Part shown: positions 1 through 12,627 of the stretch, in pieces | Layout of the letters: each line of letters begins with the position of its first letter | Position numbering within the stretch: the stretch's first letter is position 1 | DNA from: Escherichia coli | GTDB lineage: Bacteria > Pseudomonadota > Gammaproteobacteria > Enterobacterales > Enterobacteriaceae | Direction: 5' to 3' (one strand) | Assembly (NCBI RefSeq): GCF_050920415.1 | Contig: NZ_CP169309.1 | Length of the DNA: 64,000 nt | Notes under the pieces: model-generated | Databases searched by the model: none | Seen by the model: the letters and a program-made list of their open reading frames with translations, nothing else | Told to the model about the DNA's origin: nothing | Position numbers and translations under genes: made by a program

Positions 1-41
1 TCGACGGCGGCTTAAGTATGCCGCGCTTCTGAGGCTGAATC

Positions 42-884
42 ATGAGAGATCTGTTACAACGCCCGGATTTATTCAGTATCAATACTGCGACACTGGGCTA
101 TAAAACGCCGCTACCTGCCATTATTGATGCCTGCGCCGCACGCGGTATTGGCGCGATTGCCCCCTGGCGCAGGGAGTTGCAGGGTGAAGATCTCCAGCAA
201 ATCGCCCGCCAGCTTGCTGCCAGTAACATGAGCGTTTCCGGTTTGTGTCGTAGCACCTATTACACCGCGCCGACGCTGACGGAACGCAAACTGGCGATTG
301 ATGATAACCGCCGGGCGCTGGACGACGCCGCTGTACTGAACGCCGCCTGTTATATGCAGGTGGTTGGCGGTCTGCCAATGGGAACAAAAGATCTGTACGA
401 AGCACGGGAACAGGTGAAACAAGGGATTCGCCAGTTGCTGCCACATTCGAAAGAGGTCGGCGTGCCAATTGCACTGGAGCCACTGCACCCGATGACTGCT
501 GCCGATCGTTCTTGTCTGTGCACATTACGTCAGGCGCTGGACTGGTGTGATGAACTCGATCCCGATGGCGAATTTGGCCTCGGCGTGGCGGTAGATGTCT
601 ACCATGTCTGGTGGGACCCGGATCTCGCCAGTCAGATCCTGCGTGCCGGAAAACGCATCCTCGCGTTTCATGTTTCCGACTGGCTGGTGCCAACCACCGA
701 TTTAGTCAATGATCGGGGAATGCCGGGAGATGGCGTCATTAATATTCCCTCTATTCGTCGGCTGGTTGAAAACGCCGGATTTAATGGCGCTATTGAACTG
801 GAAATATTCTCGCCGTACTGGTGGCAGAAAGATATTAACAGCACGCTGGATATTAGCGTCGATCGCATCGCGCATTATTGCTAA
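42..884 (+). CDS. sugar-phosphate isomerase/epimerase-like TIM-barrel protein (xylose-isomerase-like fold), 280 aa
   Basis: ORF 42-884 with GAGG 7 nt upstream of ATG. Motifs such as AFHVSDW and IELEIFSP fit the xylose-isomerase-like TIM barrel family. In-frame stop at 30-32 excludes a longer N-terminus. First gene of a tightly packed plus-strand operon. Confidence 0.7.
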   Translation: MRDLLQRPDLFSINTATLGYKTPLPAIIDACAARGIGAIAPWRRELQGEDLQQIARQLAASNMSVSGLCRSTYYTAPTLTERKLAIDDNRRALDDAAVLNAACYMQVVGGLPMGTKDLYEAREQVKQGIRQLLPHSKEVGVPIALEPLHPMTAADRSCLCTLRQALDWCDELDPDGEFGLGVAVDVYHVWWDPDLASQILRAGKRILAFHVSDWLVPTTDLVNDRGMPGDGVINIPSIRRLVENAGFNGAIELEIFSPYWWQKDINSTLDISVDRIAHYC

Positions 885-893
885 GGAATGATC

Positions 894-1670
894 ATGAGTG
901 ACCAACCCGTTCTGTTCAGCAGAGCGGCGGCTTCCTGCCGCCTGACATTGAACCGTGAAGATAAATGTCATGCTATTAATGAAGAAATGATCGAATCTCT
1001 CGACCATTATTTAAATGAAATTGAAAACGACACCACATTACGATTAGTCGAATTAACGGCAACCGGCGATAAATTCTTTTGTGCGGGCGGCGATATTAAA
1101 TCGTGGTCAGCCTATTCGCCATTAGATATGGGCAGAAAATGGATTAAACGCGGCAATGACGTTTTTAATCGCCTGCGCAATTTACCTCAATTAACGGTTG
1201 CGAATCTCAACGGTCATACTATCGGCGGTGGTATTGAACTTGCCTTGTGCTGCGATATTCGTATTGCCCGCCCCAGTGCGAAATTCTCTAATCCGGAAGT
1301 AATGCTCGGCATGGTGCCTGGCTGGATGGGCATTGAACGCGTGCTTAATCAGGTCGGTCCGGTGGTCGGTCGCCAGATGCTGATGCTGGGTAAACGCCTG
1401 ACGGCGCAGGAAGCTCAGGCGGCGAATTTAATTGATGAAGTGGTAGAAAAAGAACAGGTGGAAAGCTGGATGGCGAATCAGTTAGCGCAGCTGGAAAAAT
1501 GCGGTCCGGTGGCGCTCGCACATATCAAGCAACTGATTCTGGCTCTAGAAAATAAACATGCTGATTACCCGCACCAGTTACTGGCTGGATTAATGTCCGC
1601 CACTCAGGATTGCCAGCAGGCGACGCGCGCATTTGCCGAAAAAAGTAGCGTGAGCTTCCAAAATCAATAA
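894..1670 (+). CDS. enoyl-CoA hydratase/isomerase (crotonase) family protein, about 258 aa
   Basis: Crotonase-fold motifs FCAGGDIKSW and GHTIGGGIELALCCDIRIA. AAGGA at 883-887 sits 6 nt before the ATG at 894; the ORF-track start at 888 would leave no spacer. Confidence 0.72.
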   Translation: MSDQPVLFSRAAASCRLTLNREDKCHAINEEMIESLDHYLNEIENDTTLRLVELTATGDKFFCAGGDIKSWSAYSPLDMGRKWIKRGNDVFNRLRNLPQLTVANLNGHTIGGGIELALCCDIRIARPSAKFSNPEVMLGMVPGWMGIERVLNQVGPVVGRQMLMLGKRLTAQEAQAANLIDEVVEKEQVESWMANQLAQLEKCGPVALAHIKQLILALENKHADYPHQLLAGLMSATQDCQQATRAFAEKSSVSFQNQ

Positions 1671-1679
1671 GGAAATTGT

Positions 1680-3221
1680 ATGCGTAAGATAACAACCGCC
1701 GAGACACTGGCGGCGCAAATTCAGGACGGCGCAACCATTGCCATTAGCGGTAATGGCGGCGGCATGGTGGAAGCGGACCATATTCTGGCTGCTATTGAAG
1801 CGCGTTTCCTGCAAACCGGACACCCGCGCGATCTGACATTAATCCACTCGCTGGGCATTGGCGATCGCGACTGCAAAGGCACTAACCGCTTCGCTCATGC
1901 AGATATGCTCAAACGCATCATTGCCGGACATTTTACCTGGTCGCCCAAGATGCAGGATCTGGTGAAAAACAATGCTATTGAAGCCTACTGCTTCCCTGGT
2001 GGCGTAATTCAGGCACTGCTGCGGGAGATCGGTGCCGGACGTCCAGGGCTTTTTACCCACGTTGGACTGGGATCGTTTGTTGATCCGCGCAACGGCGGCG
2101 GTAAGTCGAACGCCAGCACCACTGAGGATCTGGTAGAACTGATTGAAATCGACGGTGAAACCAAACTTCGTTATCGCCCTTTCAAAGTGGATTACGCGAT
2201 TTTGCGTGGCACTTATGCTGATCCGCGTGGCAACGTCAGCCTCGAAGAAGAGGCGATTGATATGGATAGCTATTCCATGGCGCTGGCAGCACACAACAGC
2301 GGCGGCAAAGTGTTCGTACAGGTGCGCGATGTGCTGGAAGCTGGTGCCATTGAACCACGCCGGGTCAAATTACCGGGCATTCTGGTTGATGGCATCGTTG
2401 AACACCGCGAACAACCACAAACCTATCTTGGCGGTTACGATCTGACCATTAGCGGTCAGCATCGCCGTCTAAGTTCTAACGACGCAATTGAACTGGTTAG
2501 TCATCCGGTGCGCCGCCTGATTGCCCGTCGGGCAGCACGCGAACTGGTAGCTGGCGCTTCAACCAACTTTGGCTTTGGCATTCCCGGCGGCATTCCTGGG
2601 GTTGCACTGCGCGAAGGCGTGCCTTATCAAAGTTTATGGCTGAGCGTCGAGCAAGGCGTGCATAACGGTATGATGCTGGATGATGCTCTGTTCGGCTGCG
2701 CCCGTAACGCCGATGCCATTATTCCATCACTCGATCAATTCGAATTCTACAGTGGCGGAGGGATCGATATCACCTTCCTCGGCATGGGAGAGATGGATCA
2801 GCATGGTAACGTCAACGTCTCCCATCTCAATGGCAATCTCATTGGCCCCGGCGGATTTCTCGAAATTGCGCAAAACGCCCGTAAAGTGGTGTTCTGTGGC
2901 ACGTTCGACGCCAAAGGTAGCAAGATTGATGTAACACCAGATGGCTTGCATATCGCCCAGTCAGGTCAAATCCCTAAACTGGTTACCCAGGTGGAAAAAA
3001 TCACTTTTAGCGCCGCCTACGCACAGCAAAGCGGTCAGGAAGTGTTGTATATCACTGAACGTGCAGTATTCCAGTTAACGGCAGAAGGCGTTGAATTAAT
3101 TGAAATCGCGCCGGGTGTGGAGATTGAACGCGACATTCTGCCGCATATGGCTTTCCGTCCAATTATCAATCAGCCACGCCTGATGGAAAGTAGCCTGTTT
3201 ACGCCGATGGAGGATGCATGA
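1680..3221 (+). CDS. CoA-transferase (family I, acetyl-CoA hydrolase/transferase-like), 513 aa
   Basis: ORF with TAAGGA 6 nt upstream. Size and Gly-rich N-terminal region (ISGNGGGM) resemble YdiF-type acyl-CoA:acetate CoA-transferases. Family call from memory, not searched. Confidence 0.6.
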   Translation: MRKITTAETLAAQIQDGATIAISGNGGGMVEADHILAAIEARFLQTGHPRDLTLIHSLGIGDRDCKGTNRFAHADMLKRIIAGHFTWSPKMQDLVKNNAIEAYCFPGGVIQALLREIGAGRPGLFTHVGLGSFVDPRNGGGKSNASTTEDLVELIEIDGETKLRYRPFKVDYAILRGTYADPRGNVSLEEEAIDMDSYSMALAAHNSGGKVFVQVRDVLEAGAIEPRRVKLPGILVDGIVEHREQPQTYLGGYDLTISGQHRRLSSNDAIELVSHPVRRLIARRAARELVAGASTNFGFGIPGGIPGVALREGVPYQSLWLSVEQGVHNGMMLDDALFGCARNADAIIPSLDQFEFYSGGGIDITFLGMGEMDQHGNVNVSHLNGNLIGPGGFLEIAQNARKVVFCGTFDAKGSKIDVTPDGLHIAQSGQIPKLVTQVEKITFSAAYAQQSGQEVLYITERAVFQLTAEGVELIEIAPGVEIERDILPHMAFRPIINQPRLMESSLFTPMEDA

Positions 3222-5299
3222 GTCAGCTTGATGACACCCTCCTTGATGCGCTGACGCACGTCACTTTCCCGAAGGGTTTTGTGTCAGCAGAGCCAGCGTC
3301 AATTGTCACGGTTGAAGATGTCGATTACCCGATCTGGCAAGTTGATGCGCTAGTCGTTGGTAGCGGCGCGGCAGGGCTGCGCGCAGCGGTTGAACTTAAG
3401 CGCCGCCAGCAAAATGTGCTGATCGCCACCGCCGGGTTATATATGGGGACATCGGCATGTTCTGGTTCCGATAAACAGACGCTGTTTACCGCCGCTACCG
3501 CGGGCAACGGCGATAACTTCGCTAAACTGGCGGAAGCACTGGCGAGCGGTGGGGCGATGGATCACGACACCGCTTATGTCGAAGCGGTAGGTTCTCTGCA
3601 CACTCTTGGCGGGTTGCAATATCTTGGTCTGGAATTACCGGAAGATCGCTATGGCGCAATTCTTCGTTATCAAACCGACCATGACGAAGCCGGGCGAGCA
3701 ACCTCGTGTGGGCCGCGTACTTCTCGCCTAATGGTGAAAGTATTGCTGGAGGAAGTGCAGCGTCTTGCCATACCACTACTGACCAGTGCAACGGTGATTA
3801 AGCTCCTGCATCAGCACGGAGAGAATGGCGAAGATCGCGTTGCGGGGGCTATTCTCGCAACCGGTTCCCGCGCCTATAACCCTTGGGGGCTGGCTATTGT
3901 GACGGCGCCCAATGTGGTACTGGCAACGGGCGGACCGGGCGAGCTTTATCGCGACAGTGTTTATCCACATAAATGCTTCGGCTCGCTGGGGCTGGCGCTG
4001 GAAGAAGGTCTGACGCTAACCAATCTGACCGAAAGCCAGTTTGGTATAGGCACGCCGCGCAGCACGTTTCCGTGGAATTTGTCCGGCACCTATGTACAGG
4101 TGATCCCATATATCTATTCCGTGGATGCCGGGGGCAACGAGTATAACTTCCTCGCAGATTACTATCGCACCACCCAGGAGCTGGCTTCAAACATCTTCCG
4201 TAAAGGCTATCAGTGGCCGTTTCACGCCACACGAGTGATGGATTTTGGCTCCAGCTTGTTAGATATGGCAGTAGCGCAAGAGCAGCAATCAGGGCGTCAG
4301 GTATTTATGGATTTCAATCGCAATCCTGAACCTGTGCCGGGTGACCTGCCGTTCTCATTAGATCGACTGGACGACGACGTTCGCGCGTATCTGGAAAATA
4401 ACGACGCTCTGGCACCATCGCCCATCGAACGACTGCAACGAATGAATCCGCTGTCTATCTCGCTGTATAAGATGCACGGTTACGATCTCACCACGCAGCC
4501 ATTGCAGTTTGCCATGAATAATCAGCATATGAATGGCGGCATTGAAGTGGATATCTGGGGGCAAACCTCCCTGTCCGGCTGTTTCGCCGTGGGGGAAGTT
4601 GCTGGCACACACGGCGTCACTCGCCCTGGTGGTGCGGCATTGAATGCCGGGCAGGTTTTTGCTGTTCGTCTGGCACGTTTTATTGGTTGCACGCAAAAGC
4701 GGTCCGTTGAGGATGATGTCGCGCAGCTAGTAGCCTCACCTCTGCATACAATCAGAGAAGTTATCGCTCAGGCACTGGCAAACGAGAACGGAATGACGCT
4801 GGCAACGGTAAAAGAAAAAATCCAGGCGCGAATGTCTGATTACGCGGGATTTATTTGCCATGCTGATAAAGTTCGTCACGCCGCCCGTGACGCCATGCTG
4901 TTAAATGAATTTGCGCAGCAACATGGTCTAACTATCAACCACGCCGGTGAAATTGCCGAGCTATTTATGTGGCGGCATATGGCATTAACATCCGCTGCGG
5001 TGTTAAGCCAGCTATCACATTATATTGATGCTGGCGGTGGTAGTCGTGGAGCGCGGATGATTATTGATCCACAAGGAGAATATCTTCCACAAACTCGTCG
5101 CGGCGCAATCGAAGATTGGCGTTTTCGCTCTGAACAAGCTGAAGATAAAAATCACAGACTAACTCTCTCCTTTTCACAAGGTTTATTTATTAATGAAATT
5201 AAGTTCTTGAGAAACTTACCGCATATTAAAGGTATTTACTTTGAGAAGAATTGGCCTGATTTTCTTAACGGAACAATTTATCAGACACGGCATGAATAA
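3218..5299 (+). CDS. FAD-dependent oxidoreductase, fumarate-reductase/succinate-dehydrogenase flavoprotein-like fold, 693 aa
   Basis: Start overlaps the upstream stop (ATGA) with GGAGGA RBS. Dinucleotide-binding motif VVGSGAAGLRAAVEL near the N-terminus and an ATGGPGELY segment typical of FAD-binding-2 enzymes. No signal peptide; the last ~250 aa are not recognisable. Confidence 0.62.
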   Translation: MSQLDDTLLDALTHVTFPKGFVSAEPASIVTVEDVDYPIWQVDALVVGSGAAGLRAAVELKRRQQNVLIATAGLYMGTSACSGSDKQTLFTAATAGNGDNFAKLAEALASGGAMDHDTAYVEAVGSLHTLGGLQYLGLELPEDRYGAILRYQTDHDEAGRATSCGPRTSRLMVKVLLEEVQRLAIPLLTSATVIKLLHQHGENGEDRVAGAILATGSRAYNPWGLAIVTAPNVVLATGGPGELYRDSVYPHKCFGSLGLALEEGLTLTNLTESQFGIGTPRSTFPWNLSGTYVQVIPYIYSVDAGGNEYNFLADYYRTTQELASNIFRKGYQWPFHATRVMDFGSSLLDMAVAQEQQSGRQVFMDFNRNPEPVPGDLPFSLDRLDDDVRAYLENNDALAPSPIERLQRMNPLSISLYKMHGYDLTTQPLQFAMNNQHMNGGIEVDIWGQTSLSGCFAVGEVAGTHGVTRPGGAALNAGQVFAVRLARFIGCTQKRSVEDDVAQLVASPLHTIREVIAQALANENGMTLATVKEKIQARMSDYAGFICHADKVRHAARDAMLLNEFAQQHGLTINHAGEIAELFMWRHMALTSAAVLSQLSHYIDAGGGSRGARMIIDPQGEYLPQTRRGAIEDWRFRSEQAEDKNHRLTLSFSQGLFINEIKFLRNLPHIKGIYFEKNWPDFLNGTIYQTRHE

Positions 5300-5319
5300 T
5301 ATTGCAAAGGTTAATCACT

Positions 5320-5796
5320 ATGCGAAATATAATCAGATCTATTAATTCATTGCTTTCCACATTGAACATTACCATTTTGGCAATTATTGTGATGTGCGTT
5401 ACATGGCAAGTAGTAGCACGATTTATCTTTAAAAGCCCCAGCATTTTTACAGATGAACTTAGTCGTTTACTATTTATTTGTCTTGGACTTTTTGGTGGTG
5501 CTTATACTGCCGGACAAAACCGACATCTGGCCATTGATCTTCTGCCAATGATGCTAAAAGGAAAATCCCGACGTTATTTATTCTTATGTATTCAGGCCAT
5601 TGTTATTCTTTTTGCCTCTATCATTATGGTTTATGGTGGCGGGTTATTAACACTGGACACATTTGATTCAGGGCAAACTTCTCCGGCTTTAGGCTGGCAG
5701 ATGGGATATATTTACATGAGCATTCCAATAAGTGGCATCCTTATTATTATATACACCATAGATACAGTTTTAACCGAACTTAAACAACCACTCTAA
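5320..5796 (+). CDS. TRAP transporter small permease (DctQ-like), about 158 aa
   Basis: Small hydrophobic multi-TM protein immediately upstream of DctM-like and DctP-like genes. ATG at 5320 with AAAGG 9 nt upstream is preferred over the TTG at 5302. AT-rich coding sequence. Confidence 0.6.
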   Translation: MRNIIRSINSLLSTLNITILAIIVMCVTWQVVARFIFKSPSIFTDELSRLLFICLGLFGGAYTAGQNRHLAIDLLPMMLKGKSRRYLFLCIQAIVILFASIIMVYGGGLLTLDTFDSGQTSPALGWQMGYIYMSIPISGILIIIYTIDTVLTELKQPL

Positions 5797-5818
5797 AATA
5801 AGTAGGGATGGAGAAAAC

Positions 5819-7120
5819 ATGGATTACTGGTTACCGATCATTGTGTTATTTGGTGCTTTCTTTTTTATGTTGGCATTAGGTGTTCCTATTGTCTATGCTA
5901 TTGGTTTATCAACACTGGCATCAATTACTACACAACTCGATTTCAACTCAGCGTTAAGTGTGGTTTCCCAAAAGTTAGCCTCCGGGTTAGATAGTTTTAC
6001 GTTGTTGGCAATCCCATTTTTTATTTTGTCTGGCAACATTATGAATCACGGAGGAATAGCGCGACGATTAATCAACTTTGCCCGAATTCTCGGCGGTCGT
6101 CTGCCAGGCTCACTTGCCCACTGTAATATTCTTGCCAATATGCTGTTCGGGGCAATTTCTGGTTCAGCCGTGGCTTCGGCGGCTGCGATGGGCGGCGTCA
6201 TGCATCCGCAACAGGTTAAAGAGGGCTACGACCCGGCATTCAGTACTGCAGTTAACGTTGCCTCTGCCCCGACGGGTTTGCTTATTCCACCCAGTAATAC
6301 GTTAATCGTCTATTCACTGGTCAGTGGTGGTACTTCTATTGCCGCACTGTTCCTGGCAGGATATGTCCCGGGAATTTTATTGGGCCTGGCGCTGATGACT
6401 GTGGCTGGTATTATCGCGGTACGCCGGGGTTATCCAAAACCAGAACGTCCGACTTTGCGCCAGGCTGGAGTGGCAATATGGATGGCGATCCCCAGTATTT
6501 TCCTGATTGTATTAATTATGGGTGGTGTACTAAGCGGTATTTTTACCCCGACAGAAGCATCTGCAATTGCGGTAATTTATACCCTTTTCCTTGCACTGGT
6601 TCTTTATCGTGAAATATCAGTTAAAGATTTACCTAAGATATTTCTGGAGTCCGTCATTACCACTGCAATTGTCTTGTTGTTAATTGGTTCTTCAATGGGA
6701 ATGTCATGGGCAATGTCAAACGCTGACGTTCCCTTCCTGATTCTCGATTTGCTTAACACTATTTCTGACAATCCAATAATCATCCTGCTTATTATCAATA
6801 TTATCCTGTTGATTATCGGCACATTTATGGATATGACACCGGCAGTACTGATTTTTACGCCGATATTTTTACCCGTTGTCACCGAACTGGGTATGGACCC
6901 GATTCACTTTGGTATTGTCATGGTACTGAACATGTGTATCGGTATTTGTACTCCGCCTGTAGGCAGTGTGTTATTTGTCGGTTGTAGTGTATCTAAATTA
7001 CCGATTAATAAAATTATCAAACCTATGCTGCCATTCTATGCCGTGATGGTATTGGTGCTGGCAATGGTTACCTATATTCCGCAAATCAGTATGGCATTGC
7101 CAAGAGCACTGGGCTACTGA
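5819..7120 (+). CDS. TRAP transporter large permease (DctM-like), 433 aa
   Basis: 433-aa polytopic membrane protein with the size and hydrophobicity pattern of DctM-family permeases. GGATGGAG RBS; positioned between Q-like and P-like genes. Confidence 0.7.
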   Translation: MDYWLPIIVLFGAFFFMLALGVPIVYAIGLSTLASITTQLDFNSALSVVSQKLASGLDSFTLLAIPFFILSGNIMNHGGIARRLINFARILGGRLPGSLAHCNILANMLFGAISGSAVASAAAMGGVMHPQQVKEGYDPAFSTAVNVASAPTGLLIPPSNTLIVYSLVSGGTSIAALFLAGYVPGILLGLALMTVAGIIAVRRGYPKPERPTLRQAGVAIWMAIPSIFLIVLIMGGVLSGIFTPTEASAIAVIYTLFLALVLYREISVKDLPKIFLESVITTAIVLLLIGSSMGMSWAMSNADVPFLILDLLNTISDNPIIILLIINIILLIIGTFMDMTPAVLIFTPIFLPVVTELGMDPIHFGIVMVLNMCIGICTPPVGSVLFVGCSVSKLPINKIIKPMLPFYAVMVLVLAMVTYIPQISMALPRALGY

Positions 7121-7172
7121 TATGCATTAACTGGCGGCACCTGCCGCCATATTTATTAGAAAAGGAACATCT

Positions 7173-8144
7173 ATGAAAATAAAAGTATCCGCTGGCATTA
7201 TCGGTGCTGTTCTTATGCTATCCGCAAGCCAGTCCTGGGCAGTAACATTAAAACTTAGCCATAATCAGGATAAATCTCATCCTGTTCATAAAGCGATGGA
7301 GTTCTTTGCGAAAAAGAGCAAAGAGTACTCTAACGGTGATATTACTATTCGTATTTATCCAAATGGAACATTGGGTACTCAACGAGAAACAATGGAGCTG
7401 ATTCGTTCTGGTGCTATTCCGCTGGTAAAAACCAATGCGGCGGAGATGGAAGCCTTCGAGAGTTCGTATAAAATATTTAGCCTGCCTTATTTGTTCCGCG
7501 ATCGTGATCATTATTATCAGGTCATGCAAGGCGATATCGGAAGGAAAATCCTCGACTCAACGAAAAGCAAAGGTTATTTCGGGCTGACTTTCTATGATGG
7601 AGGCGCCCGCAGTTTCTACGGTAATAAACCGGTACTGAAACCAGACGATCTGAAAGGCATGAAAGTCCGTGTCCAGCCAAGTCCTGGCGCAGTTGAAATG
7701 ATCAAAGTCATGGGCGGTAACCCGACGCCACTGGATTACGGCGAGCTGTATACGGCCTTACAGCAGGGCGTGGTCGATATGGCAGAAAACAGCGTGATGG
7801 CACTGACCACTATGCGTCACGGTGAAGTGGCAAAATCCTTTAGCCTTGATGAGCACACCATGGTGCCCGATGTGGTTCTGATGAGTAATGCTGCATTTGA
7901 TAAACTCAGCCCTGAAAATCAGGCAGTTATATTAAAAGCAGCGAAAGAATCGATGAGTTACATGAAGGAGTTATGGAGCGAGCAAGAGAAACAAGAATTT
8001 GCAAAACTGGATAAAATGGGCGTAAAAGTCTACCCGGTTGATAAAGCACCGTTTATCGAGAAAGTACAACCGATGTACGCAAACTTCGCTAAAGATAACC
8101 CTGCCCTTGCCCCAATGCTGGCTGATATTCAGGCGGCTAAGTAA
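7173..8144 (+). CDS. TRAP transporter periplasmic substrate-binding protein (DctP-like), 323 aa
   Basis: N-terminal signal peptide (MKIKVSAGIIGAVLMLSASQSWA), size typical of DctP-family binding proteins, AAAGGA RBS. Last gene of the operon, convergent with rplI. Confidence 0.7.
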   Translation: MKIKVSAGIIGAVLMLSASQSWAVTLKLSHNQDKSHPVHKAMEFFAKKSKEYSNGDITIRIYPNGTLGTQRETMELIRSGAIPLVKTNAAEMEAFESSYKIFSLPYLFRDRDHYYQVMQGDIGRKILDSTKSKGYFGLTFYDGGARSFYGNKPVLKPDDLKGMKVRVQPSPGAVEMIKVMGGNPTPLDYGELYTALQQGVVDMAENSVMALTTMRHGEVAKSFSLDEHTMVPDVVLMSNAAFDKLSPENQAVILKAAKESMSYMKELWSEQEKQEFAKLDKMGVKVYPVDKAPFIEKVQPMYANFAKDNPALAPMLADIQAAK

Positions 8145-8201
8145 TTACCTTCATGGGGCTGCTTATTGTGGCCCTTATCGATATCAGCAAGTGCTCGCTA
8201 T

Positions 8202-8236
8202 AAAAGCAAAACGCCGACCAATGGTCGGCGTTTTTA
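8202..8236. terminator. bidirectional rho-independent terminator between the TRAP operon and rplI
   Basis: Perfect 8-bp stem CGCCGACC/GGTCGGCG (8212-8219 and 8223-8230), flanked by an A-run at 8202-8211 and TTTTT at 8231-8235. Confidence 0.8.
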
Positions 8237-8255
8237 CGTCTCGTTGAATAACGAA

Positions 8256-8717
<462 letters not shown>

Positions 8718-8746
8718 TCAAAGTCGTATTAATGGACCGTGACCGA

Positions 8747-9293
<547 letters not shown>

Positions 9294-9299
9294 CAGAAA

Positions 9300-9713
<414 letters not shown>

Positions 9714-10022
9714 TTATTCAGCCTCCTGTCTGGGTCAGCCGAATCCCGGGGAGGCAAGGAACGTGTTAAAGGTCGGCTGAAAAATGACGCGTTATAGTAC
9801 TGACATACCCCGTTAAACTCAAGGCCAGCCGACAAATAAATCTCATCTTTCACCAAATCGTACTAACACGCTGATTTGAAGTTCATCACACTTCATCATG
9901 GTGTTTTTTTGAACAACTGCATCAGAAATGGTCACCATCAACTTCTTTATCATTGATTAAAATTAAATCAGAAGATCACCACAAGAGGAGAGCACACAAA
10001 GTCAGCCGTCGAGGAGGTATCT

Positions 10023-10298
10023 ATGTTCAGCCGTGTTTTAGCCCTTCTGGCTGTGCTTTTGCTAAGTGCAAATACATGGGCAGCCATTGAAATTAATAAC
10101 CACCAGGCCAGAAATATGGACGATGTGCAAAGCTTAGGCGTGATTTATATCAATCATAATTTCGCCACTGAAAGCGAAGCGCGTCAGGCATTAAATGAAG
10201 AGACAAATGCGCAGGGCGCAACGTACTACCACGTGATTCTGATGCGGGAACCGGGGAGTAACGGCAACATGCACGCCAGCGCGGATATTTATCGCTAG
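10023..10298 (+). CDS. yjfY: DUF1471-family small secreted protein YjfY
   Basis: 91-aa ORF with signal peptide (MFSRVLALLAVLLLSANTWA); GAGGAGG RBS; K-12 position between rpsF and ulaF. Confidence 0.9.
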   Translation: MFSRVLALLAVLLLSANTWAAIEINNHQARNMDDVQSLGVIYINHNFATESEARQALNEETNAQGATYYHVILMREPGSNGNMHASADIYR

Positions 10299-10338
10299 CA
10301 CCAGGTATAACCAACGAAACATTGCCATAGTTTGCTTT

Positions 10339-10363
10339 GCCCCCTTCTCAGGGGGCTTTTTTT
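10339..10363 (+). terminator. rho-independent terminator of yjfY
   Basis: Stem GCCCCC/GGGGGC (10339-10344 and 10351-10356) with a 6-nt loop, followed by TTTTTTT at 10357-10363. Confidence 0.8.
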
Positions 10364-10426
10364 GAAAAACGGCTGCGGACTTAGACCAGTTATCTCCCGA
10401 AGAAGGAAATTTCCGCAGCGCGTGTT

Positions 10427-11113
10427 TTACTTCTGCCCGTAATAGGCGTTAGGACCGTGCTTACGCATGAAGTGTTTATTCATGAGATAGCTGTCGATGT
10501 GATTCAGTTGTGGGTTAATGCCGCGGGCAATCCACGCCATTTTCGCCACTTCTTCCATCACCACCGCGTTATGCACCGCATCGTGAGCATCTTTCCCCCA
10601 GGCGAACGGCCCGTGCTGATACACCACAATTCCCGGCGTATGCAGCGGCTCGGCGTCACCCAGCGTTTCGATAATCACTTTGCCTGTGTTTAGCTCGTAT
10701 TCCCCCTGCACTTCTTCTTCACTTAACCCACGCGTACACGGGATATCGCCAAAGAAGTAGTCAGCATGCGTGGTGCCTAATGCCGGGATCGCCAGCCCCG
10801 CTTGCGCCCATGCGGTGGCATGCGTGGAATGGGTATGGACAATGCCGCCAAGCGACGGATAACGACGGTAGAGTTCAAGATGCGTCGCAGTGTCGGAAGA
10901 CGGACGATACTCCCCTTCCACCACCTTGCCGCTAATATCAACCACCACCATATCGTCTGCTTTCATGGTTTCGTAGGCGACACCGCTGGGCTTGATCACC
11001 ACCAGCCCGCGTTCGCGGTCAATGGCGCTGACGTTACCCCAGGTAAAGGTCACCAGCCCGTAACGCGGCAGATCCATGTTGGCTTCAAATACCTGCTGTT
11101 TCAGCTTTTGCAT
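10427..11113 (-). CDS. ulaF: L-ribulose-5-phosphate 4-epimerase UlaF
   Basis: 228-aa translation [36 protein letters not shown]...; last gene of the ulaABCDEF operon. Confidence 0.95.
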
Positions 11114-11967
11114 TATGCCGCCTCCACCATGCCTGCTTTAGCCATGCGCGCTTTCACCCAATCACGCGCTTTCGCCACTTCTGCCGCCGGGTCTTCCGCC
11201 GTTTCGCTCCACATCTCAATCAGGTACGGCCCGCAATAGCCACTCTGTTTGAGCGTTTCAAAGCAACGTTCGAAATCCACCACACCCTCGCCAAACGGCA
11301 CGTTTTTGAAGACGCCTGGTTTAGTGTCTTTCACATGCACCGCGACGATATGCCCGATTCCGGCCTGCAATTCCATCTGCACGTCGTTGTCCCACGCCGA
11401 CAAGTTGCCGATATCCGGGTAGAGCTGGAACCACGGGTTGTTAAGATAGTGCGCGTAACCCAGCGCCTTGCTGATGGAGTTCATCAACGGGTAATCCATG
11501 ATCTCCATTGCCAGCGTCACCTGCGCGCGGCTCGCCATCTCAACGCTCTCTTTCAGGCCGTCACGGAAACGACGACGCGTTTCGTTATTGGCTTCCTGAT
11601 AGTAAACGTCGTAGCCCGCCAGTTGGATCACGCGAATACCGACATCCTGGGCGAACTGGATAGCTTTTCGCATAATCTCAAGCCCCTGCGCCCGCACTGC
11701 GTCATCTTCGCTGCCCAGCGGGAAACGACGATGAGCAGAAAGGCACATGGATGGTACGCGCACGCCGGTTTCAACAATCGCGTTCACCAGCGCCAGACGC
11801 TGCTCGCGGCTCCAGTCAAGGCGCGAGAGGCGATCGTCCGTTTCATCTACCGACATCTCGACAAAATCGAAGCCTAACGTTTTTGCCAGTTGCAGCCGTT
11901 CCAGCCAGCACTCCCCGGCGGGGAGCGCTTTTTCGTAGATGCCAAGCGGGATTTGTTTGGACAACAT
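11113..11967 (-). CDS. ulaE: L-ribulose-5-phosphate 3-epimerase UlaE
   Basis: 284-aa translation [44 protein letters not shown]...; stop shares one nucleotide with the ulaF start. Confidence 0.95.
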
Positions 11968-11976
11968 ATCCGCTCC

Positions 11977-12627
11977 TTAGCCCCACAGTTCGGCGATGGA
12001 ACGTTTGAACTGACGCGCGGCTTCAACCGGAGAGGCGGCATCACGGATACTACGCCCAGCGATAAACACATGAATCGGAATGCCTTTGAACAGCGGCAGG
12101 TCTTCCAGCGCCAGGCCACCGGTGACGGTGACTTTGAAGCCCATATCGGAAAGACGTTTGATCGCGGTGATATCCGCTTCGCCCCACGCCACGCCTGCGG
12201 CCTGCGCGTCACGGCTGCGGTGATAAACCACCTGCTGGATACCTGCGTCGCGCCACTGCTGCGCCTGTTCCCAGGTCCAGTAACCGGTCAGTTCGATCTG
12301 CACGTCGCCATTAAACTCTTTTGCCACGTCCAGCGCGCCTTTGGCGGTGTTGATATCTGCACAGCAAATTACGGTCACCCAGTCAGCGTTGGCTTCAAAG
12401 CACATACGAGAAAGGATTTTTCCGGCATCGGCGATTTTGGCGTCTGCCAGCACGATTTTGTGCGGATAAAGCGCTTTCAGATCGCGAACCGCACGCACAC
12501 CTTCGCCCACGCACAGAATGGTGCCCACTTCGATAATGTCGACTTCTTCGGCAATCAGGCGAGTAGTTTCGTAGGCGCTAGCCATAGTCTGGTTGTCCAG
12601 CGCGACTTGCAACATCGGTAATGACAT
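11977..12627 (-). CDS. ulaD: 3-keto-L-gulonate-6-phosphate decarboxylase UlaD
   Basis: 216-aa product starting [13 protein letters not shown]... at the ATG at 12627 (AAGGAA RBS); the longer ORF-track start at 12780 has no RBS support. Confidence 0.93.

Follow-up and report, generated by a model that had tools for sequence, protein, structure and literature searches.

The carnitine operon caiTABCDE joins, in a single operon, the uptake of a hydroxy acid, coenzyme A (CoA) transfer, beta-elimination by a crotonase and a flavin-dependent step on an enoyl compound. Here we analyze an operon for which the same combination can be proposed, located between ytfB and rplI at the start of a 64,000-nucleotide stretch of Escherichia coli DNA (the window; assembly GCF_050920415.1, contig NZ_CP169309.1). 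As there, CoA probably cycles back from the product to the substrate. The operon follows the Cai logic but is not a member of that system: only the crotonase superfamily is common to both, its transferase is a family I, YdiF-like enzyme whereas CaiB belongs to family III, and its flavoprotein is FrdA/NadB-like whereas CaiA has the acyl-CoA dehydrogenase fold. The CaiC ligase and the betaine antiporter CaiT have no counterpart; instead, the operon encodes transporters that point to a sugar acid and, in addition, a short-chain dehydrogenase/reductase (SDR) and a triosephosphate isomerase (TIM) barrel.

The Ashwell and Kdu pathways offer a second comparison. One transporter found with the operon, a member of the major facilitator superfamily (MFS), is 47% identical to ExuT, and DctP, the solute-binding protein of the other, a tripartite ATP-independent periplasmic (TRAP) system, is 54–58% identical to solute-binding proteins of UxaC/UxuB clusters. 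Isomerase, keto-reductase and dehydration roles are plausibly parallel, and relatives of the operon are linked to KdgK- and Eda-like genes. Unlike these pathways, the operon encodes no UxaC, UxuA/B, UxaA/B or KduI and has an additional flavoprotein, and its CoA-transferase and crotonase would fill the role of the dehydratase.

The flavoprotein itself shares its catalytic domain and fold with the soluble FAD_binding_2 reductases (the NADH:fumarate reductase of Klebsiella pneumoniae, the acrylate reductase of Vibrio harveyi, and the urocanate and methacrylate reductases). As in the non-fumarate enzymes of this group, one carboxylate-binding His/Arg pair is kept while the remaining site is altered. 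In contrast to them, the E. coli protein has no old yellow enzyme (OYE), FMN_bind or cytochrome domain, carries an insertion and a C-terminal domain, and occurs in a sugar-acid context. Lastly, the 2-deoxy-D-ribonate route of the enterobacterium Klebsiella michiganensis is a precedent for breaking down a sugar acid by way of its CoA thioester (PMC6365646), but it uses a CoA synthetase, a hydroxyacyl-CoA dehydrogenase, a thiolase and a glycerate kinase, and has no flavoprotein, TIM barrel or crotonase. Identity with that cluster was rejected, as both the locus and the enzymes differ.

The genes of the operon carry generic names in thousands of genomes, and their arrangement of known superfamilies is unmatched by characterized pathways. 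A literature search covering the operon, its gene combinations and its relatives found no functional description, in line with the first-pass annotation of the window, which could match no named operon. Our preferred reading, which we put forward tentatively, is that this is an ancestral operon under the control of CRP and the TetR-family regulator YtfA, which would catabolize a hexuronate-like sugar acid through carnitine-operon-like CoA chemistry, outside the UxaC/Uxu/Uxa route.

Gene organization and control region

As reference annotation, we used the RefSeq coding sequences (CDSs) of E. coli MFDS1022581 (NZ_CP169399), which is 100% identical to the window. Seven plus-strand open reading frames (ORFs) of the window coincide with its CDSs. 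We adopted the RefSeq starts at 894 and 5320 (ORF calling gave 888 and 5302 as alternatives), with which the intergenic gaps are 9, 9, −4, 20, 22 and 52 nt, the spacing given by the first-pass annotation. The features are listed below in window coordinates.

1..32, plus strand: 3' end of the SDR gene, PRK12745-type (NF009386); the RefSeq CDS spans −759..32 (L001 11241–12032), with its stop codon TGA at 30–32
42..884, plus strand: xylose-isomerase-like TIM barrel, 280 aa, putative keto-sugar-acid isomerase/epimerase (Pfam AP_endonuc_2)
894..1670, plus strand: crotonase-family enoyl-CoA hydratase, 258 aa (NCBIfam matches, catalytic Glu motifs)
1680..3221, plus strand: family I CoA-transferase of the YdiF/Pct/FadX type, 513 aa (YdiF, 2ahu, 391 bits)
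3218..5299, plus strand: stand-alone FrdA/SdhA/NadB-like flavoprotein, 693 aa (Pfam FAD_binding_2)
5320..5796, plus strand: TRAP small membrane subunit DctQ, 158 aa (RefSeq CDS, YiaM model)
5819..7120, plus strand: TRAP large membrane subunit DctM, 433 aa (TIGR00786)
7132..7149, plus strand: GC-rich hairpin between dctM and dctP (terminator-like scan)
7173..8144, plus strand: TRAP solute-binding protein DctP, 323 aa, with signal peptide (TIGR00787)
8208..8234, either strand: palindromic bidirectional terminator, common to dctP (plus) and rplI (minus) (terminator-like scan)
8256..8705, minus strand: rplI (ORF call)

All the gene families named by the first-pass annotation were upheld by profile searches. 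Its seven genes are real, but the operon it described has eight, plus a divergent regulator. Its suspicion that the operon begins upstream of the window proved right: the SDR gene starts 760 nt before position 1 and stops 9 nt ahead of the TIM-barrel gene. The reading frame it saw ending at nt 13–15 is not this gene, whose stop lies at 30–32 in frame 3; the TAA at 13–15 belongs to another frame. The extension it proposed in search of a regulator uncovered a TetR-family gene of 215 codons (full-length YtfA), divergent from the SDR gene and overlapping the end of ytfB in NZ_CP169399. The gene order is thus a divergent TetR gene followed by SDR-TIM-ECH-CoAT-FAD-DctQ-DctM-DctP, where ECH, CoAT and FAD denote the crotonase, the CoA-transferase and the flavoprotein.

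As a whole, the operon comprises eight co-directional genes with gaps of 9–52 nt, one 4-nt overlap and a single terminator. The terminator has a 12-bp stem with seven GC pairs and runs of A and T on either side. The hairpin at 7132–7149 has a 7-bp stem with six GC pairs and a T-rich tail 3' of the stem; it is a possible candidate for an attenuator, an mRNA-stability element or an element adjusting expression of the binding protein. The overlap (ATGA, 3218–3221) joins the CoA-transferase stop to the flavoprotein start. Two E. coli proteins, P0024 (1,078 aa) and P0031 (1,043 aa), are predicted CoA-transferase–flavoprotein fusions across it; they could be real fusions or could have arisen through a frameshift or an artefact of sequencing.

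The spacer between the TetR and SDR genes holds a 22-bp palindrome with perfect arms, ATCAACCAACT/AGATGGTTGAT, that shows no variation between E. coli, Klebsiella oxytoca and Salmonella, while the remaining spacer is about 80% conserved. Directly upstream of the palindrome lies a CRP-like site, TGTGA-N6-TC(G/A)CA, conserved in the three genera (TGTGATCATTATCGCA in E. coli; GTGA-N6-TCACA in K. oxytoca and Salmonella). The two elements together are located 827–870 nt upstream of window position 1 (L001 11130–11173), and the candidate YtfA operator stretch reads ATCAACCAACTAGATGGTTGAT. The palindrome is likely the YtfA operator and the CRP-like site a catabolite-activation site. Inspection of the control region for an FNR site (TTGAT-N4-ATCAA) found none, an Rfam search returned no riboswitch or leader RNA family, and a sigma-70 promoter scan gave matches no more frequently than in shuffled sequence. 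YtfA orthologues carry Pfam TetR_N and TetR_C_29 domains; the best profile match of YtfA is weak (the acyl-CoA-sensing FadR, 44 bits).

Transporters, enzymes and the flavoprotein

The TRAP assignment held for all three subunits. DctM and DctP exceed curated cut-offs (DctM, TIGR00786, 461 bits against 268; DctP, TIGR00787, 247.8 bits against 175, and NF037995, 251 bits against 50), and DctQ weakly matches the YiaM model (E 9e-10). Pfam DctQ, DctM and DctP were all found in the orthologues from Klebsiella huaxiensis. The best Protein Data Bank (PDB) matches of DctP are 4ovr, 4x8r, 4n8y and 4n15/4ln5 (E 1e-73 to 1e-68, 37–41% identity), of which 4X8R binds glucuronate and 4N8Y galacturonate (PMC11668362). 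The Arg/Arg/Asn triad by which TRAP binding proteins contact the carboxylate and alpha-hydroxyl of the substrate (PMC11668362) corresponds to Arg146, Arg166 and Asn206, invariant in the binding-protein alignment.

Outside the operon, the closest DctP homologues are those of Vibrio cholerae and Aeromonas veronii, encoded in DctP/DctQM-UxuB-UxaC-KdgK-Eda clusters with UxuA; that of V. cholerae additionally includes a beta-glucuronidase of glycoside hydrolase family 2 (GH2). The alternative MFS transporter falls in the sugar-acid ACS subfamily, and its identity to ExuT, the E. coli hexuronate transporter, extends over the full length. DctP appears to belong to a hexuronate-binding subfamily, and since two unrelated, mutually replacing uptake systems both indicate a hexuronate-like acid, the substrate is probably of this class. 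The substrate had earlier been described simply as an organic acid; the acid stands, and the relatives of both transporters narrow it to a hexuronate-like sugar acid. A fumarate/succinate or C4-dicarboxylate reading was rejected on the nearest relatives of DctP and on the active-site residues of the flavoprotein. The operon-linked DctPs differ from the glucuronate-cluster proteins at Met203, Ser207 and Val208, which adjoin the ligand-binding Asn206. Because carriers also possess the classical pathway, a variant ligand instead of glucuronate itself would fit.

Among the operon enzymes, the NCBIfam profile search, made with all nine proteins of the locus, reached no equivalog cut-off that implies a function, and the SDR alone passed a cut-off. 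This 263-aa protein scores 420.6 bits on NF009386 (PRK12745; cut-off 250), a family still listed under the legacy name 3-ketoacyl-ACP reductase. On the KduD models it reached 101–117 bits, below the cut-offs of 339–430, and its relatives in a PDB sequence search are uncharacterized structural-genomics entries. The TIM barrel belongs to Pfam AP_endonuc_2 (E 2.9e-37) and best matches the uncharacterized rhizobial SMc04130 entries 3ju2/3qc0 (290 bits, about 50% similar). Its matches to the IolO, Hyi, FrlC and OtnI models are weak (at most 28 bits), and none was found to the NCBIfam models of dehydroshikimate dehydratase and IolE.

The crotonase matches many enoyl-CoA hydratase models at about 1e-44, best a short-chain enoyl-CoA hydratase (152.7 bits), under every equivalog cut-off; in its translation, both catalytic Glu motifs are intact (GGGIELAL and NPEVMLG). 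The CoA-transferase aligns with YdiF end to end, both halves fused (391 bits over residues 6–508), with Glu324 opposite YdiF Glu333, which we take to be the catalytic residue. It scores 385 bits on the FadX model, whose cut-off is 750. Pfam ECH_1 and CoA_trans were found in orthologues of the crotonase and the CoA-transferase. Together with the absence of any characterization in the AlphaFold database (AFDB) and PDB comparisons, these searches name no enzyme function.

The flavoprotein had been described as similar to fumarate reductase and succinate dehydrogenase (FRD/SDH). Its family and fold stand: the sequence matches Pfam FAD_binding_2 (E 1e-25), with no further domain in the E. coli protein, and the AlphaFold2 model (mean confidence, pLDDT, 91.2) superposes in Foldseek on FrdA/SdhA with TM scores of 0.66–0.79 at 15–18% identity. 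Function is a different matter. A PDB sequence search gave only distant FrdA/NadB matches, its AFDB50 neighbours are all unnamed, and its top NCBIfam hit reaches 126.6 bits where the cut-off is 718. In an alignment with FrdA and NadB of E. coli, the covalent-FAD histidine is missing from the protein; Gly stands in place of FrdA His232 and Asn in place of the proton donor Arg287, while His355 and Arg390 of FrdA are retained as His437 and Arg469. Since the His232 and Arg287 equivalents are missing, the protein is not a fumarate, succinate or aspartate enzyme. An FRD, SDH or NadB identity was accordingly rejected: the dicarboxylate-site residues are replaced, the score is under the cut-off, and the annotation shows no iron–sulfur subunit gene in the operon. 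The retained pair suggests that the flavoprotein probably anchors one carboxylate beside the flavin. A family-specific insertion, FxKGYQWP, has invariant F327, K329, G330, W333 and P334, and some 80 residues at the C-terminus form an extra domain. Among the genes of the E. coli operon there is none for an OYE, FMN_bind, cytochrome or electron-transfer flavoprotein (ETF) donor.

The family to which this protein belongs is large. We collected 417 representatives at E ≤ 1e-30; it comprises hundreds of 50%-identity clusters, occurs in polysaccharide-degrading bacteria and is widespread in Planctomycetota, Verrucomicrobiota, Lentisphaerota, Rhodobacteraceae and enterobacteria. One metagenomic representative, P0146 (1,084 aa), is a natural fusion of an OYE-like Oxidored_FMN domain with FAD_binding_2, and OYE or OYE-GltD genes adjoin the SDR–flavoprotein pair in nine Planctomycete-type loci (L064, L067, L075, L077, L079–L082 and L084). 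In soluble fumarate and acrylate reductases, an OYE-like domain oxidizes NADH and FAD_binding_2 reduces the enoate (bioRxiv 10.1101/2022.01.20.477176). P0146 and the OYE neighbours hint that NAD(P)H can serve the family as an electron source. The enzyme may reduce a 4,5-unsaturated uronate, which is the only alpha,beta-unsaturated sugar acid in nature, a direction favoured by the OYE fusions; by analogy with NadB, it may instead oxidize the carbon beside the carboxylate; or its task may be to adjust a non-standard uronate in oxidation state or stereochemistry.

Gene neighbourhoods, ancestry and transporter exchange

We compared gene neighbourhoods in one genome per species for the best 80 of 589 confirmed flavoprotein relatives; neighbouring genes were called and clustered, and the recurrent ones annotated. 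The patterns observed are given below with the identity of the flavoprotein to that of E. coli (Gfo, Gfo/Idh/MocA-family protein).

Pattern a (above 75%): Escherichia, Klebsiella, Salmonella; the eight-gene operon
Pattern b (57–59%): Brenneria, a TetR gene with SDR-TIM-FAD-MFS, and Pseudescherichia/Mangrovibacter, a TetR gene with SDR-Gfo-TIM-MFS-FAD; no CoA enzymes
Pattern b, non-enteric (52–57%): Lentisphaeria, Opitutae, Planctomycetes, betaproteobacteria; Gfo, TIM, SDR and FAD, no CoA enzymes
Pattern c (52–59%): one betaproteobacterium, Pseudovibrio, several Rhodobacteraceae, Tropicimonas; CoA-transferase/crotonase pair adjoining the flavoprotein
Pattern d (37–41%): Planctomycetes/Phycisphaerae; PRK12745-type SDR, Eda-like aldolase, KDG (2-keto-3-deoxygluconate)-kinase-like protein, BNR protein, GH28, OYE or OYE-GltD

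Across the family, the neighbours include PfkB kinases of the KDG type, Eda-like aldolases, Gfo/Idh/MocA and SDR proteins, GH28 enzymes and LacI/GntR regulators, and the Brenneria variant carries a PcaK-like aromatic-acid MFS transporter (369 bits). The SDR–flavoprotein pair is a conserved core amid sugar-acid genes, and the CoA-transferase/crotonase pair is a recurrent add-on that always moves as a unit in gamma-, beta- and alphaproteobacteria. Within pattern c, the betaproteobacterium has the order CoAT-ECH-TRAP-MaoC-ACAD-EtfBA-TIM-FAD (ACAD, acyl-CoA dehydrogenase), and the Pseudovibrio CoA-transferase is 64% identical to the E. coli enzyme. The Rhodobacteraceae have Gfo-FAD-KdgK-like-CoAT-ECH-ALDH (ALDH, aldehyde dehydrogenase) with a sugar ATP-binding cassette (ABC) transporter and glucose–methanol–choline (GMC) oxidoreductases. 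In Tropicimonas sp. IMCC6043 (L038 1457–5528), the three genes adjoin one another in the E. coli order, and the transferase between crotonase and flavoprotein is of family III and Frc/CaiB-like, a non-orthologous displacement of the family I enzyme. The earlier suggestion of a caiABCD-like logic of CoA-transferase, crotonase and flavoprotein is borne out by the recurrence of the triad in other phyla. Its corollary, that the flavoprotein acts on an enoyl-CoA, is not required, because relatives occur without CoA enzymes.

In a survey of 5,426 complete E. coli genomes, the ECH-CoAT-FAD segment was present in 3,117. The TRAP cassette occurs in 1,445, and a gene for a 425-aa MFS protein followed by yjfZ in 1,670; as the two numbers add up to 3,115, compared with 3,117 genomes carrying the operon, the cassettes are alternatives. 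The first-pass annotation had placed the operon where K-12 has yjfZ. The TRAP cassette does occupy the position of the MFS gene and yjfZ, but in the MFS variant yjfZ coexists with the operon.

The same operon lies in the same ytfB–rplI interval in K. oxytoca, K. huaxiensis and Salmonella enterica, and flavoprotein orthologues are also found in Escherichia albertii, Escherichia marmotae and Citrobacter. In a separate survey, ytfA was listed as a TetR gene carried by all examined strains of E. albertii and Escherichia fergusonii and by part of E. coli (PMC6790063). The K-12 pseudogene ytfA corresponds to the C-terminal 133 residues of the operon's TetR protein at 97% identity (L002 3588–4096). 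Compared with E. coli CE10, K-12 has lost about 7.9 kb; the missing stretch begins at TetR codon 82 and reaches some 100 bp past the last operon gene, the sole exception being a 100-bp, 80%-identical SDR relic beside ytfA. From the ytfA remnant and this relic, it follows that K-12 descends from the MFS and yjfZ form by a deletion of about 7.9 kb. The operon is ancestral at the ytfB–rplI site, and K-12 is a deletion derivative. A mobile or horizontally acquired island was ruled out by synteny in three genera and by the K-12 deletion relics, and the annotation shows no integrase at the locus.

The transporter cassette alone looks to have been exchanged, with both the TRAP and the MFS form also found in Klebsiella. 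The point of exchange falls in the final ~80 codons of the flavoprotein gene. In the window, the stretch from 4721 to 5900 (the 3' end of the flavoprotein gene and dctQ) has 37–45% G+C and 68–82% identity to other E. coli alleles, against mostly 86–98% for the rest of the operon. The flavoprotein gene is a mosaic, since the C-terminus of the window allele resembles the MFS-type allele yet is joined to a TRAP cassette. The MFS proteins of E. coli CE10 (L088 9484–10761) and K. oxytoca (L090 12128–13405), encoded at the equivalent position, are 51% identical to each other; the flavoproteins of E. coli and K. oxytoca are about 79% identical. From these comparisons, the transporter slot appears to have been swapped more than once.

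The window strain is itself divergent. Its flanks are mostly 90–99% (on average about 93%) identical to typical E. coli (WG5 and CE10), and the divergence extends to flanking housekeeping genes such as fklB, ytfB and the ula genes (window 1–12000 and flanks; L001 8000–24000). Only 4 of the 5,426 genomes reach at least 99% identity over the enzyme genes. The strain may represent a divergent or cryptic Escherichia lineage.

A possible route and its alternatives

The locus looks like an ordinary catabolic operon, and its chemistry is so far inferred. In the route that we tentatively prefer, a sugar acid imported by the TRAP or MFS transporter would be converted by the family I CoA-transferase to its CoA thioester, with acetyl-CoA or a product thioester as the donor. 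A CoA thioester of a sugar acid has a precedent in the deoxyribonyl-CoA of K. michiganensis (PMC6365646). Formally, a uronyl- or aldonyl-CoA would be a 2,3-dihydroxyacyl-CoA, from which the crotonase could eliminate the beta-hydroxyl, following the CaiB/CaiD logic, to give an unsaturated or 2-keto-3-deoxy acyl-CoA. This step would replace the classical, metal-dependent sugar-acid dehydratase and yield the same skeleton as the product of a dehydratase or a polysaccharide lyase, and the transferase would hand the CoA on. The FrdA-like flavoprotein, with one His/Arg clamp kept and the fumarate-specific residues lost, would oxidize or reduce a C–C bond beside the carboxyl. The TIM barrel and the SDR, in KduI/KduD- or UxaC/UxuB-like roles, would lead to a KDG-type keto-deoxy acid for the housekeeping KdgK and Eda. 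A more specific version, in which the pair eliminates the 4-hydroxyl of a uronyl-CoA and a new stand-alone FrdA-like family performs the first known flavin-dependent C4–C5 redox step on a (4,5-unsaturated) uronate, is doubtful.

Several points weigh against this route. The flavoprotein step is its weakest link: the protein is the most conserved component of the module, yet for a simple uronate-to-KDG conversion, which balances without it, an isomerase, a reductase and a dehydratase suffice. Relatives at 57–59% identity lack the CoA enzymes, and so the target of the CoA pair may be a fragment further down the pathway instead of the sugar acid. YdiF-type transferases act on short-chain acyl groups, and no operon enzyme reaches an equivalog cut-off that names a reaction. 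The residues Met203, Ser207 and Val208 of DctP may indicate that the true ligand is other than a common uronate. The FadR match of the regulator says little either way.

The split suggested by these relatives, with the SDR, TIM barrel and flavoprotein converting the sugar acid without CoA and the CoA-transferase and crotonase, helped by a housekeeping thiolase or reductase, processing a later short fragment (for example 3-hydroxypropionate, 3-hydroxybutyrate or a lactate-like acid), strikes us as unlikely. Close flavoprotein relatives do sit in clusters without CoA enzymes, the CoA-transferase is about equally near YdiF and FadX (391 and 385 bits), both short-chain acyl-CoA transferases, and the crotonase is nearest to short-chain Crt-type hydratases; moreover, the pair lies beside MaoC, an acryloyl-/butyryl-CoA-dehydrogenase-like ACAD and EtfAB in the betaproteobacterium, and beside an aldehyde dehydrogenase in Rhodobacteraceae. 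However, an aldolase, lyase or hydrolase to release such a fragment is missing from the E. coli operon, and the overlap of the CoA-transferase stop with the flavoprotein start suggests linked steps. This same coupling, together with the ECH-CoAT-FAD order, fits a Cai-like anaerobic electron sink, in which a CoA-activated acid would be dehydrated, the enoyl-CoA or enoate reduced by the flavoprotein, and the dehydroxylated product excreted or used. The triad with a CaiB/Frc-type transferase in Tropicimonas points the same way, as do the use of FAD_binding_2 as the reducing module of NADH:fumarate and NADH:acrylate reductases (bioRxiv 10.1101/2022.01.20.477176), the P0146 fusion and the OYE or OYE-GltD genes flanking the nine SDR–FAD pairs. 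We nevertheless think an electron sink, an option raised in the first-pass annotation, improbable in E. coli: none of the electron donors listed above is encoded in the operon, the flavoprotein, a cytoplasmic protein, is without the Arg that serves fumarate reductases as proton donor, and the SDR, the TIM barrel and the kinase and aldolase neighbours of relatives favour carbon assimilation. The CRP-like site, the missing FNR-type site and the lack of an electron-donor module argue for carbon catabolism in E. coli, short of proof, and give the sink no direct support there; the distant OYE fusions keep a reductase direction possible.

Two further schemes start from other parts of the neighbourhood. 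The flavoprotein could be a cytoplasmic aldonate or uronate dehydrogenase forming a 2-keto sugar acid, with the TIM barrel as a KguE-like epimerase, the SDR as a keto-reductase and the CoA enzymes as accessories. In relatives, genes for an NAD-dependent dehydrogenase and a PfkB kinase typically flank the flavoprotein gene, in some cases accompanied by those for a D-2-hydroxyacid dehydrogenase and a LacI regulator, which mirrors the kguE-kguK-kguT-kguD/ptxS arrangement of Pseudomonas; the kept carboxylate clamp is compatible with such a role, and NadB-type chemistry at the alpha-carbon is established in the superfamily. Yet the E. coli operon has neither a kinase nor a 2-hydroxyacid dehydrogenase, and the strictly co-inherited CoA-transferase/crotonase pair would be left unexplained, so we give this scheme little credence. 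Still more remote is the degradation or dehydroxylation of a hydroaromatic or other cyclic carboxylate of the quinate/shikimate type via CoA esters. CoA activation combined with an SDR, a crotonase and a flavoenzyme resembles the chemistry that leads from shikimate to cyclohexanecarboxyl-CoA, xylose-isomerase-like barrels include dehydroshikimate and inosose dehydratases, and Brenneria has its PcaK-like transporter. Against this, the models of dehydroshikimate dehydratase and IolE gave no match to the TIM barrel, the transporters of E. coli are both of the hexuronate type, and relatives lie beside KDG-type kinases, aldolases and pectin hydrolases.

Whichever substrate is involved, the pathway is present in more than half of sequenced E. 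coli and absent from K-12, and its carriers include many extraintestinal pathogenic lineages as well as B strains. This complete and regulated pathway of eight genes, which is also found in Salmonella and Klebsiella, has apparently gone unstudied. The function of the operon would explain the K-12 pseudogene ytfA, and the exchange of TRAP and MFS cassettes is a natural system for studying how transporters are replaced within a fixed pathway. An orphan flavoenzyme family would gain an assigned reaction, and CoA-dependent dehydration, if true, would be a new solution to the dehydration of sugar acids. Once the substrate is identified, models of gut colonization would gain a nutrient niche.

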